In this document: positions 1 through 4,763 of the stretch, in pieces
Layout of the letters: every line of letters begins with the position of its first letter
Position numbering within the stretch: position 1 is the first letter of the stretch
Origin: a bacterium
GTDB lineage: Bacteria; JADJOY01
Length of the DNA stretch: 64,000 nt
Assembly: GCA_046331705.1 (NCBI GenBank)
Contig: JAXLQJ010000044.1
Span: 1 to 64,000 of the forward strand
Reading direction: 5' to 3'
Notes under the pieces: model-generated
The model's database searches: none
What the model was told of the DNA's origin: nothing
Seen by the model: the letters and a program-made list of their open reading frames with translations, nothing else
Made by a program: the position numbers and the translations under genes

Positions 1-2079
1 GCCGACCTTTTCGCGTCTGCCGTCTTTCGCGTAGCCCGCTTCAAGCTCAGATTTTATGAAGCCAATATCGTTGCTTCGTCGCCACGCGACGGAATCTAGC
101 CTCTCAACTTCAAAGCCAAGATCGCGCAGATAGGTGGCCAAGGCCCGCTCCGTCTGATAGGGCGCAATCGCTAGAAGGAATTTGTGAAACGATCCCTTGC
201 CCGAAAACTCGGCCGAAAGGGAGGCATATGCCGCGACAAAGACATTCAGGCCATCGGTACCACGAAATCGCACCTCTCTTTCGAGTCGATCGCGGTCCTC
301 AAGTTGAAGGGCACGAACCTCCTCAATGGCTCGAGCTCTGTGGGAAACAATCTCATTGAGAAACTCCTCTGGTGCAATGATTCTAATCTGTCCGGCCATC
401 CGCTTAACTTGATCCCGAAGTCGATCGATCGTCGGTCCGTAGAGTGATGCGAGCGGGTGTCCTCGAACGATTGCAGGCATCAGAACTGAAGCATCCAGGT
501 ACATGCGCTGGGGAAGCGTCATACCGTGACTAAACGTGGTTCTTGCGTGACCGAGCGCAATCTGAAGCGCGAAGCCAAGCCGTCCAAGCTCGGCCAAAAT
601 AGAGGCCTCGGCTCGCGATGGTCTATTCAGGAGATCTGCGATTGCATGCTCAGCGGCCTCACGCTTCGGGGCGGATAGCTTCGAGCGACCGACGAGCGAG
701 GAGAGCGTGCTGGCGGCGGATCCGATCTCTCCGACCACGGGCGAGACGAAGCTCGCAGCAAGGTCCCATGCGCGCACCACGAACAACTCCACCAATACCT
801 CGGAAATCTCCCGCGTCTCCGCCGGCGCCAACGCGACACTTTCTCGCACTTCCATGCGCTTCCCCACGCCGCGCGCCAGTTGAAGAGTCTGCTCGCTGAG
901 ATCGTTCTTCACCGTATGCGTAGAGACAAGATTGAGGCCGTCTTCTTTGCACGCGCCTACCGACGTTAATCTTCCGAGGGCGATTTCCAGCCGAGGCGCG
1001 ACTTCAACGTCTGGCATTCCAAGCCGTCGTCCCACCTCAAGTGTGAGCACGTCTCGGGCAAGCCCCACTTTGCCGGCATCTTCTAACAAGGCAATTACAA
1101 TGCCCTCAAGGACCACATCACGTAGTGGCGCGACTCGAGAGCCCATCTTGGCCGCGGCGTAACACAATCCTAGTAGTTGTCGCACCGCATCGAATGTGAC
1201 GGAGAACGGGCGCGCGGAACTTACATCCGCTGCGGGACGCGACCCGAGATTCTTGCTTACCTCGGCGATCGCCGACCAGAGCGCTTCATGATGGCGTGCG
1301 CTCGGATATTCAATGCATTTGAAGTTGAGTCGAGCAAGCTCGAATCCGAGGGGGGTATCATCGGATGAAATAAATGCTACCGGTGTTTGGGGAAAGGCCG
1401 TCCCGCGGAGTTCGCGCCACGACTTCAAGATCGCCAGGATTGCGGGGTCCGTGAAAGAAAATCCAAGAAACGCAAGGCGACGGTGGGAAAGAAGATTCAG
1501 AAGACCGTCGGTGAACGCGGGATCGTTGTAGGTGCGCTCATAATCTCTTTCATCAAAGACCATTTCGGCTGCATGCAGTGCGAGCTGACCACGTCCGTGA
1601 AGGAATAGGTAGAAGGGGTCCTTTACCCAGGCGGCATTGTTCGTGTGAGATTTGTCGATCTCGTGTGGTGTCTCTTGATCACGTTGGACAAGAATCTGCT
1701 TCCATGCCTCCAGCAGCGATGCGTCATAATTGGTGCTCACGATTCCCGCGATTGGGAGTGATGCGAGCGACATGAGGCTGCGCCAATCGTAGTGTTTGAG
1801 GGCGAAGAGATCCGTCAATGCGGTGGACTTCTCGCCCTCTGGGGCATTGAGAACACGCCGAAATAATGTCGCTGCTTGAAGCAATTGACCCGCTTTGACG
1901 CGGCTGCGCATCAAGTTGGCAAGGTCAGGCTCATACGTTTCAGCCCAGTCTGCCAAGCTCAGCAGAATGCCTGTCCAAGTTTTCCCGCCGGCCCGCGCGG
2001 ATACGCCGGCGCCAGTGAAGAGAAGCAACTCACCGTCGTGGCAGGCGGATGCAAGTGCTTGGCTGACTGATTGGGGCAT
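1..2079 (-). CDS. SIR2-like (SIR2_2) domain protein with central helical/wHTH-like region and C-terminal PIN-like domain; partial, runs off the left edge (>=693 aa)
   Basis: Not in the ORF track because there is no stop in the window. Hand translation from ATG 2079 (GGAG upstream) is open to base 1. Sirtuin-like motifs LLLFTGAGVS, IVSTNYD, YLFLHG, LAFLGFSFTDP; later MYLDASVLMP and IIAPEEFLNEIVSH resemble the start of a PIN fold. Confidence 0.85.
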   Translation of the reverse strand, partial: MPQSVSQALASACHDGELLLFTGAGVSARAGGKTWTGILLSLADWAETYEPDLANLMRSRVKAGQLLQAATLFRRVLNAPEGEKSTALTDLFALKHYDWRSLMSLASLPIAGIVSTNYDASLLEAWKQILVQRDQETPHEIDKSHTNNAAWVKDPFYLFLHGRGQLALHAAEMVFDERDYERTYNDPAFTDGLLNLLSHRRLAFLGFSFTDPAILAILKSWRELRGTAFPQTPVAFISSDDTPLGFELARLNFKCIEYPSARHHEALWSAIAEVSKNLGSRPAADVSSARPFSVTFDAVRQLLGLCYAAAKMGSRVAPLRDVVLEGIVIALLEDAGKVGLARDVLTLEVGRRLGMPDVEVAPRLEIALGRLTSVGACKEDGLNLVSTHTVKNDLSEQTLQLARGVGKRMEVRESVALAPAETREISEVLVELFVVRAWDLAASFVSPVVGEIGSAASTLSSLVGRSKLSAPKREAAEHAIADLLNRPSRAEASILAELGRLGFALQIALGHARTTFSHGMTLPQRMYLDASVLMPAIVRGHPLASLYGPTIDRLRDQVKRMAGQIRIIAPEEFLNEIVSHRARAIEEVRALQLEDRDRLEREVRFRGTDGLNVFVAAYASLSAEFSGKGSFHKFLLAIAPYQTERALATYLRDLGFEVERLDSVAWRRSNDIGFIKSELEAGYAKDGRREKVG

Positions 2080-2603
2080 CTTGGTTCTCCGCGAATGGCG
2101 ATTCGTACATCAGACCGCGTTGCGCAATCAACCGAGAGGAGGTCGCGAAGGTCCTGGCGCGTCGCCGAAGCTGGGTCTCCGTCCACGAACTGGGTGCGGT
2201 AAGGCGGGGTTTGCGCGTGGCCTGGTCTGGCCTCATTTCCGGAGGGGCGCAGGTCCGAGTCAAAGGGTGATGCGATTGGGGTCCAGGGGGGGCGCCGAGC
2301 TGTTGCGAGGGGGCGGGATGGCGGCTGGTGAGGGCGGGGGCCTAACGAGCGAGGCAAGGATTGCCATAGCCCGAGCCGGCTGGTGTGGAACGACACGGAT
2401 ACGACGACGAGGGAGTGGCAAAGGAAGACTTGGGATCGCCGGGAATGAAGGAAGGGTCCAGGATGTGGAGACGGCGTCCGAGATCCACGATCGGGAGGGG
2501 ATGAGTCGGGACAATGCGGGGTTGAAACCCTGATTGCGTATCGGCAACGTCTGCGCCTACGAGAATCTGTCCTAAGGGGCACCAAGTTGGTCGACAAATC
2601 GCG

Positions 2604-2690
2604 CGCGAACACACCGCTGTGGCTCCCGGACCACCACGGGATTTTCACGAGTGCATCCCGGGTGCCGTCAGCTTCAGCGACGAGTTGGGC
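2604..2690 (-). repeat. attC-like recombination site (imperfect, ~87 bp)
   Basis: Minus strand: R'' GCCCAAC just after the stop of 2718-3262, then a 5-nt spacer, GCTGAAGCTGACGGCACCCGG...CCGGGAGCCACAGC stem with bulges, a 5-nt spacer, then GTTCGCG. The L' arm looks about 5 nt short. Confidence 0.65.
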
Positions 2691-2717
2691 GGCCTCTCCG
2701 CTGCACCGTTTCTTGCC

Positions 2718-3262
2718 CTATGCGGCTTCGATGTCTTTGTCCGCCTCAAGCGCTGTCACGTAGCGTTCAAGATTATCGGCAATCTTCTCAAAGACCCGCG
2801 GCAGGAATGGTTCGATGTCCTCGAAAGTTGGGTTCGCTTGATGTGGACCGCCGTGATAGTACCGCAGGTGATGGAGGACGGCCTCCTTCTCTCCGTCGAG
2901 TTGGTCTAGGGCGTCCCGCGACCTGTAATCATGGAGTGCGGACAAGTGAATGAAACCACAACCAAAACGATAGACAGATTCGGTCCAGCCGTGCAGGCCA
3001 TTCGCGATGGACACCATCTCACGATCCGTGATTTTGCGGCGAGATGACGGGGCCGTCCATTTCTTGTCGTGTACGGCGGCATCGATCAGCGCATGTCGGT
3101 ACGATCGATCCGGCTGGGCCAAGAGGAAGATGAGCCTGACCATTGAATCGAGCTCCTGGCGAAGGATCGACACGATCTGACCAGGAAGCCCATCGAGTCT
3201 TCGCACGGGCCTGCCTGTGCTCAGCCGAGCGAGCACGCACTTGGCGGCAAAATTGCGACCAT
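2718..3262 (-). pseudogene. Gene-cassette hypothetical protein, frameshifted near the N-terminus
   Basis: The C-terminal frame 2718-3236 (RRLDGLPGQIVSILRQELDSMVR...) joins naturally to QFCRQVRARSAEHRQA in another frame if one C is removed at ~3208-3210. It lies between the attI-like core and attC. Confidence 0.6.
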
Positions 3263-3275
3263 GTTCACAATTGGT

Positions 3276-3312
3276 CCGCCCAACTCGAATTCGACTGAAC
3301 TACCCAGTTCAC
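3276..3312 (-). other. attI-like site / crossover point of the first cassette
   Basis: GTTGGGC core (GTTRRRY) on the minus strand at 3278-3284 is exactly complementary to the R'' of the same cassette (2684-2690); the inverted match extends to 12 bp (CCGCCCAACTCG). There is an adjacent TGAACT-N4-AGTTCA inverted repeat, and no attC arm upstream. Confidence 0.6.
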
Positions 3313-3433
3313 CCTACGAGGGCGGCTTCGCCCACGTAGCGGGGATTCTGCCCGGAGCGGCGGAATGGCGCAAGTGTGCGCCGTATCAGCAGATTCGAAG
3401 GTGGGCGAAGCGTTGAGCCAGACCGGAACCGCG

Positions 3434-4456
3434 CTACCAAGACCGGGGTAGCGGGTATTGGGTGGGTCGGCTTTCGAGGCGATCCATGGGGCTGCGGATG
3501 TTGGCGAAGCGGTGCTGGATCACGTGGGTGTAGATCATGGTGGTGCTGACGTCGTTGTGGCCGAGGAGCTCCTGGACGGTGCGAATGTCGTAGCCGTCCT
3601 CGAGGAGGTGCGTGGCAAAGGAGTGGCGCAATGTGTGGCAGGTGGCGCGTTTCGAGAGCCGCGCGCGAACCACGGCGAGGGAGACGGCGCGCTGGAGCAC
3701 GGATTCGTGCAGGTGATGGCGGCGGCGCTCGCCAGTGGGCGGGTGGAGGTAGGTGCGGGTCGCGGGAAATACCCACTGCCACGGCCACGACCGGGCTGCG
3801 GTGGGGAGTTTCTCGGCGAGGGCGGTGGGTAGTTCGACGTATCCGGCGCCGGCGGCGAGATCGCCCTGGTGCTGGGCGCGTGCGAAGGCGATCTGACGAG
3901 CGAGAGGCTCGATCAGCGACCCTGGCAAGATGGTCACGCGGTCTTTGGCGCCCTTGCCCTGGCGAACGGTGAGCTCGCGTCGCGCGATGTCCACGTCCTT
4001 GATCCGAAGCTGTGCGCACTCGAGCAATCGCAGGCCGGAGCCGTAGAGCAGTGCGGCCATGAGCCGCGGAGTGCCATCCAGGGCATCCAACAACGCGGCG
4101 ACCTCGTCGCGCGTGAGCACGACGGGGATTCGTTCGGGCCGCTTGGCGCGAACCACGTCGTCCAGCCACGGAAGATCGAGGCCGAGCACGTCGCGGTAGA
4201 GAAACAGCAGCGCAGCGAGGGCCGGGTTCTGGGTCGAGGCGCTGACGCGGCGCTGGACGGCGAGGAAGCTCAGGAACGCCGTGACCTCCGGGGCGCCGAG
4301 CTCACGCGGGTGGCGCTTGCCGTGAAAGACGATGAAACGGCGGATCCAGCTGACGTACGCCTTCTCGGTGCGGCGGCTCAGGTGGCGGGTGCGGGCGGTC
4401 TCGCGCACGCGATCCAGAAGGCGTGCCGGCTGGGCGATTGGGGTCGGTGTGAGCAT
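3434..4456 (-). CDS. intI: Integron integrase (tyrosine recombinase)
   Basis: [18 protein letters not shown]-terminus; [44 protein letters not shown]; IntI-specific insert [10 protein letters not shown]...WPWQWVFP...RRHHLHES. Confidence 0.97.
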
Positions 4457-4495
4457 GCGTGCGTGCGCCGGTTCGGAGGCATGCAGTGATCACGG

Positions 4496-4511
4496 AGCAC
4501 GGCACGTGCCG
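4496..4511 (-). promoter_or_regulatory. Possible sigma-54 (-24/-12) promoter of intI
   Basis: Minus strand CGGCACGTGCCGTGCT fits GG-N10-GC (consensus TGGCACG-N4-TTGCW), about 40 nt upstream of the ATG. Chance matches are possible at this GC content. Confidence 0.35.
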
Positions 4512-4763
4512 CAGGACGACATGCCGCTATTCCGCGGAATACGGGTTTCGACGGGGGGCGACCGCGCCCGGGCGGGCGCAGGCAGCGCGCAGGTGTGCGC
4601 CGCGGAGGGCGCAGGTGTTTTCAGCGGAAAACAGGTGAGGGATTCAGGGGCGATCGAGATCCGTGTTCCGCCGGTCGCACGCGCACCGACTGGAGCGCGC
4701 AACTCTGGGCCCTCGGCGCGAGGGGCGGGTGGTCGGGCTGCTGGTGGCCCGCCCGCGGCGAGA

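Follow-up and report, generated by a model that had tools for sequence, protein, structure and literature searches.

The window analysed here is the whole stretch of 64,000 nucleotides formed by bases 1-64000 of a 66,322-base contig (C44; JAXLQJ010000044.1) in a bacterial genome assembly (GCA_046331705.1; 8.17 Mb, 118 contigs, 2.57% contamination). At its left edge lies, on the minus strand, a partial gene for a protein in which a SIR2 domain is followed by a winged-helix-like and helical middle region and by the first half of a candidate PIN-like domain. This gene is the third unit after the attI site of a chromosomal integron, its 5′ end coincides with a cassette-type boundary, and it belongs to the variable part of that integron. 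The coordinates of the features are collected in Table 1.

Table 1. Features of the left end of the window and integron loci of the same genome (wHTH, winged helix-turn-helix; CDS, coding sequence; ORF, open reading frame).
Feature	Position	Strand	Basis or remark
SIR2-wHTH-PIN-like partial CDS	1..2079	-	693 of about 880 codons; 3′ end lost at contig edge
SIR2 (ThsA/DSR-type NADase-like) domain, residues 1-285	1225..2079	-	Pfam SIR2_2, PADLOC ThsA, PDB profile
Winged-helix-like unit and helical domain, residues about 295-520	520..1197	-	secondary-structure order of the P0002 model
First half of PIN-like domain, residues 521-693	1..519	-	VIA-align, weak PIN_12, conserved Asp/Glu
Leader, core site to start codon	2080..2339	-	no credible ORF
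GTTAGGC core (R′ box, GTTRRRY)	2340..2346	-	upstream boundary of the SIR2 gene unit
Unit 2, cassette-like, shared with contig C59	2347..2603	-	without the attC hairpin that closes unit 2 in C59
attC of first cassette	2597..2691	-	R″ GCCCAAC 2690-2684, R′ GTTCGCG 2610-2604; nhmmer E 7e-20
First-cassette ORF, 172 residues	2718..3236	-	no match in Pfam or NCBIfam
attI-like insertion point, GTTGGGC core	3278..3284	-	150 nt past the intI stop; run contigs diverge there
intI, 340 residues	3434..4456	-	TIGR02249, 448.7 bits against a cut-off of 265; same strand as cassettes
Integron or array loci in the genome	C59:21697-27083, C23:84852-91279, C30:14630-19514, C54:29793-43464, C100:6903-7678		

The gene at the contig edge and its family

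ORF finders that discard frames leaving the sequence would skip the frame 1..2079. When open ends were allowed, it was listed as 693 codons that begin with an ATG at 2079 and remain open at the 3′ end, and a preliminary description, made from the letters of the window alone, had likewise reported a frame of 693 codons open to the window edge; since window base 1 is also contig base 1, the frame is cut by the end of the contig and not by a stop. The six motifs quoted in that description are all present in the translation (FTGAGVS at residue 21, STNYD at 115, LHG at 160, FLGFSFTD at 204, YLDASVL at 527 and FLNEI at 573), and the lower GC (guanine plus cytosine) content that it had pointed out is real, with a GC fraction of 0.58 for 1-2346 and 0.593 for 2347-3433 versus 0.681 for intI and 0.696 for the remaining 59.5 kb of the window.

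A homologue search in 5.8 billion clustered proteins, in which 8000 candidates were scored, gave 23 proteins at E<=1e-3. Eighteen of them have 856-932 residues and are 30-44% identical to the query over 91-99% of its length, with E from 1e-76 to 1e-170; the other five are two shorter fragments, two distant 490-residue SIR2 proteins and the query itself. Because 18 full-length homologues match so strongly, the frame is, judged by sequence, a real gene and not a chance ORF, and from their length it follows that the window copy is short of about 190 C-terminal residues. The members are labelled at NCBI only as 'SIR2 family protein', and NCBIfam holds no family for the window protein.

The rest of the gene was not found in the assembly: the whole closest homologue as query gave no match there, and the best E for the last 230 residues of eight homologues was 0.15. 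Logan contigs of three sequencing runs (X1, X5 and X8) reach past window base 1. One contig of run X5, which comes from a separate study, spans window positions 1-1964 and then extends for 887 nt beyond base 1, and a second contig of that run bridges 1945-2610, indicating that the junction between the gene and the integron is no artefact of assembly and that the gene continues. The stretch is present in runs from 12 studies, mostly of activated sludge; an exact 48-base query against JGI metagenome contigs gave 0 matches. It should be noted that one X5 contig matches from 1703 rightwards and carries 255 unrelated letters leftwards, so that the break falls inside the SIR2 domain. This contig might derive from a sequence variant or from a rearranged copy, or it might be a chimera.

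In a scan of one genome per species, 41 loci were found among 69 pattern matches, in Acidobacteriota, Verrucomicrobiota, Chloroflexota, Desulfobacterota and many Pseudomonadota, the last including Pseudomonas brenneri, Acidovorax, Halotalea, Panacagrimonas, Luteimonas and Xanthomonas chitinilytica. At 29 of the 41 loci the frame is uninterrupted, with 836-1007 codons, and the other 12 frames are shorter owing to a contig end or a stop. A profile of the C-terminal module alone (350 positions), run against 1.84 billion cluster representatives (clustered at 50% identity), matched 379 representatives at E<=1e-3, of which 195 reached E<=1e-30; in the best 150 of the 379 the module spans approximately residues 510-865 in proteins some 850-870 residues long, or lies in shorter fragments. 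Thirty-nine representatives from these best 150 were scanned with Pfam, and SIR2_2 was found in 25, the other 14 being fragments of at most 653 residues that begin after the SIR2 region; no other Pfam family reached E<=1e-3 in the 39. Effector swapping was considered and rejected, since none of the 39 has an N-terminal domain besides SIR2, and among the sequences examined the C-terminal module does not appear to be shared with other effectors. A search of the ESM Atlas with residues 510-886 of the closest full-length homologue (P0002, 44% identical to the window protein) returned three unnamed clusters at 0.90-0.92 and gave no lead. Overall, the searches describe a sparse but widespread family of proteins of about 850-900 residues.

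The gene was not found in 40 related genomes, of which four share the genus of the host and one its family, at 74-100% completeness; it is therefore accessory. The host lineage is poorly sampled, in that beyond these four congeners and the one further family member the remaining relatives in the comparison share only the domain with the host.

Domains of the protein

The N-terminal part is recognised by Pfam family PF13289 (SIR2_2) at residues 113-241 with 53.3 bits against a cut-off of 24.5 (E 4e-14), and the same family matches 19 of the 19 members in the family alignment (A1). The PADLOC model of ThsA matches it at E 3e-15 over profile positions 12-211 of 478, and the SIR2 regions of LmuA, PDC-S25 and Dsr1 match more weakly. 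When a profile of the 19 members was compared with the PDB, ThsA was the best hit (6lhx, E 9e-26), followed by KomC, DSR2 and FAM118B, with all matches confined to profile positions 7-262; the classical sirtuin 1ma3 scored just E 1.1. The sirtuin-like domain of the preliminary description is supported by these results. The TTNYD and HG motifs of the family align onto the same motifs of ThsA, whose Asn and His we take to be the catalytic residues there, and in the window protein the GAG loop (residues 23-25), Asn117 and His161 are all intact. Conservation was counted in 105 stored members of 800-1000 residues, aligned with hmmalign: the Asn is kept in 104 of the 105, the His in 104, and the Asp of the SFxDP motif in every one. 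By its appearance, the SIR2 domain looks catalytically competent.

For the region that follows, no family match was obtained, and its description comes from an AlphaFold2 model of P0002 (alignment of 45 sequences; predicted local distance difference test score (pLDDT) 86.7, predicted template modelling score 0.78). In this model, the SIR2 fold occupies residues 1-285 and is followed by a helix-helix-helix-strand-strand unit at 313-381 and then by five long helices up to residue 517. The unit would have winged-helix topology by the order of its secondary structure, and it corresponds to nucleotides 922-1128 of the window, in keeping with the winged helix previously suggested near 900-1100.

The C-terminal domain is represented in the window by strand 1 with Asp529, strand 2, Glu576 and a helical insert, and the rest is off the contig. 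Foldseek with the whole P0002 model returned SIR2 proteins only (DSR2, ThsA, KomC and SPARSA). A separate AlphaFold2 model was made for the C-terminal 379 residues of the homologue at locus L004 alone, with an alignment of 29 sequences cut from locus DNA (pLDDT 84.2). It has a parallel five-stranded sheet flanked by helices, with strands at 13-16, 54-58, 145-147, 205-208 and 230-231. VIA-align, which is independent of Foldseek and covers 48,161 chains, assigned PIN domains to residues 8-249 of this model. The best chain, 1y82, has Z 9.5 with 145 of 147 residues aligned and a root-mean-square deviation (rmsd) of 3.5, followed by 7vwo (Z 9.0), the VapBC complex 5x3t (9.0) and VapBC2 3zvk (8.9); by title, the top 20 include nine VapC/VapBC entries, FitAB, two more toxin-antitoxin complexes, Nmd4 and two exosome chains. 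The weight of the PIN match would lie in the consistency of this list together with the coverage of the whole chain. The last 90 residues (262-353) match helical bundles, e.g., sigma-factor domains, at Z 6-7, which is uninformative.

Five acidic positions of the module are almost invariant in the 105 members. In P0002 numbering these are D525 at the end of strand 1 (YxD motif, 105 of 105), E572 in the helix after strand 2 (NE motif, 105 of 105), E/D699 in the helix before strand 4 (H-E/D motif, acidic in all 105), D722 at the end of strand 4 (T/S-x-D motif, 104) and D/E752 in the helix after strand 5 (103). H576, N608, K/R691, H698 and Q702 are nearly as constant, each being present in 103-105 of the 105. 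Going by their positions along the fold, the five acidic residues appear to sit where a PIN site expects them.

DUF4935, the former name of Pfam family PIN_12 (PF16289), is placed in the accessible text of Matelska et al. 2017 (PMC5499597) among the PIN-like families of the VapC group, with 1w8i and 1y82 as its relatives; conserved metal-binding acidic residues and a long helical insert after strand 2 are named as its features, and its genes are said there to be usually expressed as mono-cistrons. The C-terminal model from L004 shows the same features. According to these models, the C-terminal part of the 44%-identical homologue is predicted to fold as a VapC-group, DUF4935-like PIN domain. 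The PIN-like domain proposed in the preliminary description therefore stands as regards the fold of the homologue model and the conserved acidic residues, while the match to PIN_12 stays below the Pfam cut-off.

The integron and the gene neighbours

The preliminary description had placed the gene in an integron array, and an integrase gene, an attI site, one attC and a cassette-type boundary are indeed present. On the minus strand the order is attI, cassette 1 (the 172-residue ORF plus its attC), unit 2 (2603..2347) and the SIR2 gene unit. The site at 3278-3284 behaves as attI: rightwards of 3281-3288, contigs from three of four activated-sludge runs (X1, X5 and X6) agree with the window, and leftwards they are unrelated to it. 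As attI lies beyond the intI stop, the integrase and the cassettes are co-oriented, which is the layout of some chromosomal integrons. A perfect 11-nt inverted repeat (3325-3335 / 3401-3411) is located just past the intI stop, and contigs of three runs skip 82 nt, 3358-3439, including the stop codon region (short sides 29 nt).

The attC repeat family of this genome, for which 8 copies were aligned, is about 90 nt long, with an R″-like GYCCAAC start and a GTT-containing end. Its 23 copies (nhmmer E<=0.01), one of them in the window, form co-oriented runs, which lie downstream of the integrases on C59 and C23 and also on C30, C54 and C100; the members have non-consensus R′ boxes and were found only via similarity to other contigs. 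A strict RYYYAAC...GTTRRRY pattern with a folding filter, applied to 1-3500, gave one 141-nt candidate (3418..3278), which has no attC-type hairpin and was rejected. A generic repeat search over 1-4600 found no attC-like pair near the SIR2 gene. The genome's attC family has no copy in 1-2596, as expected if the gene's own attC follows its stop. In run X8, the window attC is followed by a different cassette sequence after a GTTAGGT core, which shows cassette exchange at that site; this core has GTTAGG in common with the one that bounds the SIR2 gene unit.

The boundary of the SIR2 gene unit is seen from a comparison with C59. Identity is 94% from 4433 down to 2347, where the two sequences diverge, and GTTAGGC forms the next seven bases; the chance of a GTTRRRY core at a fixed position is 1 in 1024. 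In C59, unit 2 continues into a full attC, and in the window no hairpin half precedes GTTAGGC. This is the pattern that would be expected if a circular cassette had been inserted at a secondary site. A 90-codon frame on the minus strand (2342-2614) fills unit 2, with its TAG stop inside the GTTAGGC core, and may be the remnant ORF of a truncated cassette.

Further copies of intI lie on C59 (94% identical) and C23 (71%), along with fragments; the 8.2 Mb of the genome hold three integrase paralogues and 23 attC-like repeats, i.e., several integrons or cassette arrays. Window positions 2347-4433 and C59:23793-21697 carry intI, attI, cassette 1 and unit 2 in duplicate at 94% identity, with different flanks on both sides; either the integron platform was duplicated recently or the bin contains a second strain. 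At a Verrucomicrobiota locus (L008:1480-2511), there is a broken remnant of an integron integrase, and the homologue follows it 1 kb further downstream. Only residues 1-142 and 299-330 of the remnant are recognisable, and copies of a palindromic 32-nt repeat break it up; no attC sites were found around that homologue.

Up to three ORFs on each side of the gene were collected at 32 loci, giving 152 neighbour ORFs that form just two clusters of two. No partner gene is conserved among the 32 loci, which agrees with the earlier reading of a single-gene system. These tests cover the loci of homologues, the window's own downstream side being off the contig. In a PADLOC scan of 150 of the 152 ORFs (L005:5-379 and L031:136-402, which are among the shorter ones, were left out), 12 ORFs at nine loci matched models at E<=1e-12. 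They are a DruE-like helicase upstream and DpdE/DrmD-like and DrmMI-like genes downstream of the homologue at L009, PDC-S24 at L014, PD-Lambda-1 and DrmC at L041, MADS components at L018, L033 and L038, HmaB at L022, a CARF-type model at L016 and a controller protein at L040. At L009 (L009:586-16039), the helicase gene encodes 1761 residues, and the homologue and the genes around it lie on one strand with their ends overlapping or touching. This homologue may be an accessory gene embedded in a larger system. Two near-identical IMG/VR contigs (L048:63-1870 and L049) carry the homologue at their ends; the one at L048 has as its neighbours an IS21-type transposase with its helper rather than phage structural genes.

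Proposed function, alternatives and known systems

The explanation that we prefer, with a probability of about 0.55, is that the gene encodes a single-chain abortive-infection anti-phage protein, with a SIR2 NADase (hydrolase of nicotinamide adenine dinucleotide, NAD+) and a PIN nuclease as second effector, carried as an integron cassette. The chain would comprise, in order, a domain resembling SIR2 NAD+ hydrolases, a winged-helix-like and helical middle, a DUF4935-like PIN domain with a long helical insert, and a helical tail. A phage cue, most likely nucleic acid or protein, would be read by the middle or the C-terminal part and would switch on the SIR2 domain, leading to NAD+ depletion by analogy with ThsA, DSR2 and other SIR2 effectors. 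Work ascribed to Garb et al. in 2022 is said to have found that SIR2 effectors deplete NAD+ upon phage sensing. The PIN-like domain would be a Mg2+-dependent nuclease and act as the second effector; it is probably itself an active metal-dependent nuclease because the full metal-binding acidic set is strictly kept, and its site may kill, sense or do both. A more elaborate version is a two-weapon immune protein in which the winged helix between the SIR2 NADase and the PIN nuclease reads nucleic acid, the PIN site senses or cuts invading nucleic acid and also gates NAD+ depletion, and the gene moves between phyla as an unusually large integron cassette; we regard this version as tentative and, on balance, doubtful.

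Several observations weigh against the preferred explanation. The PIN assignment refers to the model of a homologue that is 44% identical and not to the window protein, which holds two of the five acidic positions (D529 and E576), the other three lying past the contig edge. Foldseek with the L004 C-terminal model found no PDB match at E<=1e-3, its best PIN row being 1y82 at E 0.08 (probability 0.99), and the VIA-align Z of 9.5 is modestly above the 7-8 that is usual for models with no clear match. PIN_12 is the Pfam family that matches most C-terminal modules, yet it does so in 6 of 29, with a best E of 0.0055 and below its cut-off (PF01850 matches one of the 29 at E 0.049), and on the window protein itself it gives E 0.25; a sequence profile of the module matched no PDB chain at E<=10. 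On the side of the integron, the unit preceding the SIR2 gene unit lacks an attC hairpin, the gene's own attC lies beyond the contig and is unseen, a cassette of more than 2.9 kb would be large for an integron, and no sigma-70-like promoter was found in 1900-3500. The defence genes near 9 of the 32 loci are suggestive only, and the defence role and both the NADase and nuclease activities of the family are inferred.

One alternative keeps the protein and its defence role and makes the PIN-like domain a sensor or switch, which would bind phage nucleic acid or oligomerise, with NAD+ depletion as the sole effector activity. In the solved SIR2 defence proteins it is the non-SIR2 part that senses: the C-terminal region of DSR2 reportedly binds the phage tail tube, and the SLOG domain of ThsA is said to be the sensor. 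The observation that the C-terminal module never occurs with another effector in the 39 scanned representatives also suggests that the parts act as one unit. The five acidic positions together with His, Asn, Lys and Gln are, however, kept in 98-105 of 105 members, as in a catalytic metal site, and mutants of such residues in Cosus (PIN12) lose defence, as stated in the accessible text of the preprint (bioRxiv 10.1101/2024.07.02.601719), and so we consider a purely sensory PIN-like domain improbable.

VapC-group PIN domains are the classic toxins of toxin-antitoxin pairs, and the gene could be a selfish toxin or addiction module in which a SIR2/PIN toxin keeps the integron array or other mobile DNA in place. 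The top structural matches are indeed VapBC complexes, homologues stand beside IS21-type transposase genes on two IMG/VR contigs, and the window copy is in an integron, but the 32 loci have no conserved small neighbour that might serve as antitoxin, the protein has about 880 residues with sensor-like middle domains, and defence genes lie near nine of the loci; a toxin of this kind is quite unlikely. Still less is to be said for a housekeeping or regulatory enzyme, i.e., an NAD-dependent deacylase or ADP-ribosyltransferase coupled to RNA processing. SIR2 domains do occur in protein deacylases and the NCBI name would allow for it, but the SIR2 part belongs with the SIR2_2/ThsA/KomC/DSR2 branch and not with the classical sirtuins, and the gene is patchy (0 of the 40 related genomes) and sits in low-GC, acquired DNA in an integron, which makes such a role very unlikely. 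The contig begins inside the gene, the assembly has 118 contigs and 2.57% contamination, and the remainder was not recovered from it, so that the link to the integron might be an artefact or the copy a dead fragment; given the independent X5 contigs across the junction and beyond base 1, the 693 open codons and the two intact catalytic SIR2 residues, we give this very little credence.

SIR2 NADases recur as effectors in bacterial immunity, where every new partner domain has brought to light another mode of phage sensing. In the family described here, with about 200 sequence clusters (195 at E<=1e-30) from Acidobacteriota, Verrucomicrobiota, Chloroflexota and Pseudomonadota, the partner of SIR2 is a domain of the DUF4935/PIN_12 type that likewise looks catalytic. 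The window copy lies inside an active-looking chromosomal integron of an activated-sludge bacterium, which fits the recent finding of defence genes stored in integron cassettes and would extend it to a large multi-domain gene. Full-length copies are carried by cultured strains (Pseudomonas brenneri DSM 15294, Halotalea alkalilenta DSM 17697, Panacagrimonas perspica DSM 26377 and Acidovorax sp.), and the idea is therefore directly testable.

Among known systems, Thoeris ThsA (6lhx, 8bto) is the best match, in both sequence and structure, of the N-terminal 240 residues, with the GAG loop, the TTNYD Asn, the HG His and SFxDP in common. In ThsA the next domain is SLOG (STALD), to which the signal produced by the TIR protein ThsB binds, whereas in the family the ThsA profiles match at positions 12-211 and 11-233 of 478 and are succeeded by the winged helix, the helical region and the PIN-like domain; a TIR/ThsB partner is not conserved at the 32 loci, and no ThsB match occurs among the 150 neighbour ORFs. 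DSR1 and DSR2 resemble the family in layout, each being a single long chain that starts with a SIR2 effector and has a large C-terminal part, and DSR2 chains top the Foldseek list for the whole P0002 model (E 3e-9). With TM-scores of about 0.25 and rmsd above 27 Å over the whole chain, however, the rest does not superpose, the PADLOC Dsr1/Dsr2 matches are confined to the SIR2 part (residues 4-215, E 2e-3 to 9e-3) and are not end-to-end, and the C-terminal part is a helical repeat sensor in DSR and appears PIN-like with a catalytic-looking acidic set here. Lamassu LmuA (PDLC03856) matches the SIR2 part as well, up to E 2e-27 in the Pseudomonas brenneri homologue, but over profile positions 3-270 of 433 only, and no LmuB/SMC-like partner is conserved.

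To the VapC-group and PIN_12 proteins the C-terminal part is linked by Z of 8-9.5 to VapC, FitB, 1y82 and 1w8i, by the acidic residues with which strands 1 and 4 end and those in the helix that follows strand 2, and by the long helical insert after strand 2 that the accessible description of DUF4935 gives (PMC5499597). It differs in scoring below the Pfam cut-off, in having no VapB-type antitoxin, in its fusion to SIR2 and a winged helix, and in an extra helical tail of about 100 residues. Cosus (Brc24), a PIN12-domain integron cassette, protects against T7, and most of this protection is gone in the mutants T12A, D14A and D96A, according to the available part of the preprint (bioRxiv 10.1101/2024.07.02.601719). 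In a comparison by that partial description, both have a PIN_12/DUF4935-type domain in an integron cassette, and the family here has analogous YxD and T/S-x-D motifs; Cosus, however, is described there by its PIN12 domain only and from mobile integrons, whereas the protein here has about 880 residues with SIR2 and a weak PIN_12 match.

In PADLOC 2.0.0, two isolated C-terminal modules matched 0 families and three full-length members matched in the SIR2 part only, which upholds the initial impression that the architecture belongs to no named system. We found no paper naming a SIR2-PIN fusion, with subscription journals, preprint supplements and newer DefenseFinder/PADLOC releases outside the scope of the search; the accessible text of recent defence-discovery papers mentions other SIR2 combinations and not SIR2-PIN, and that of the comparative-genomics papers found by a combined-term search does not describe such a fusion. 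Taken together, SIR2-based defence is already known, and what appears to be new here is a SIR2-based, single-gene defence-like protein with a catalytic-looking PIN partner domain.

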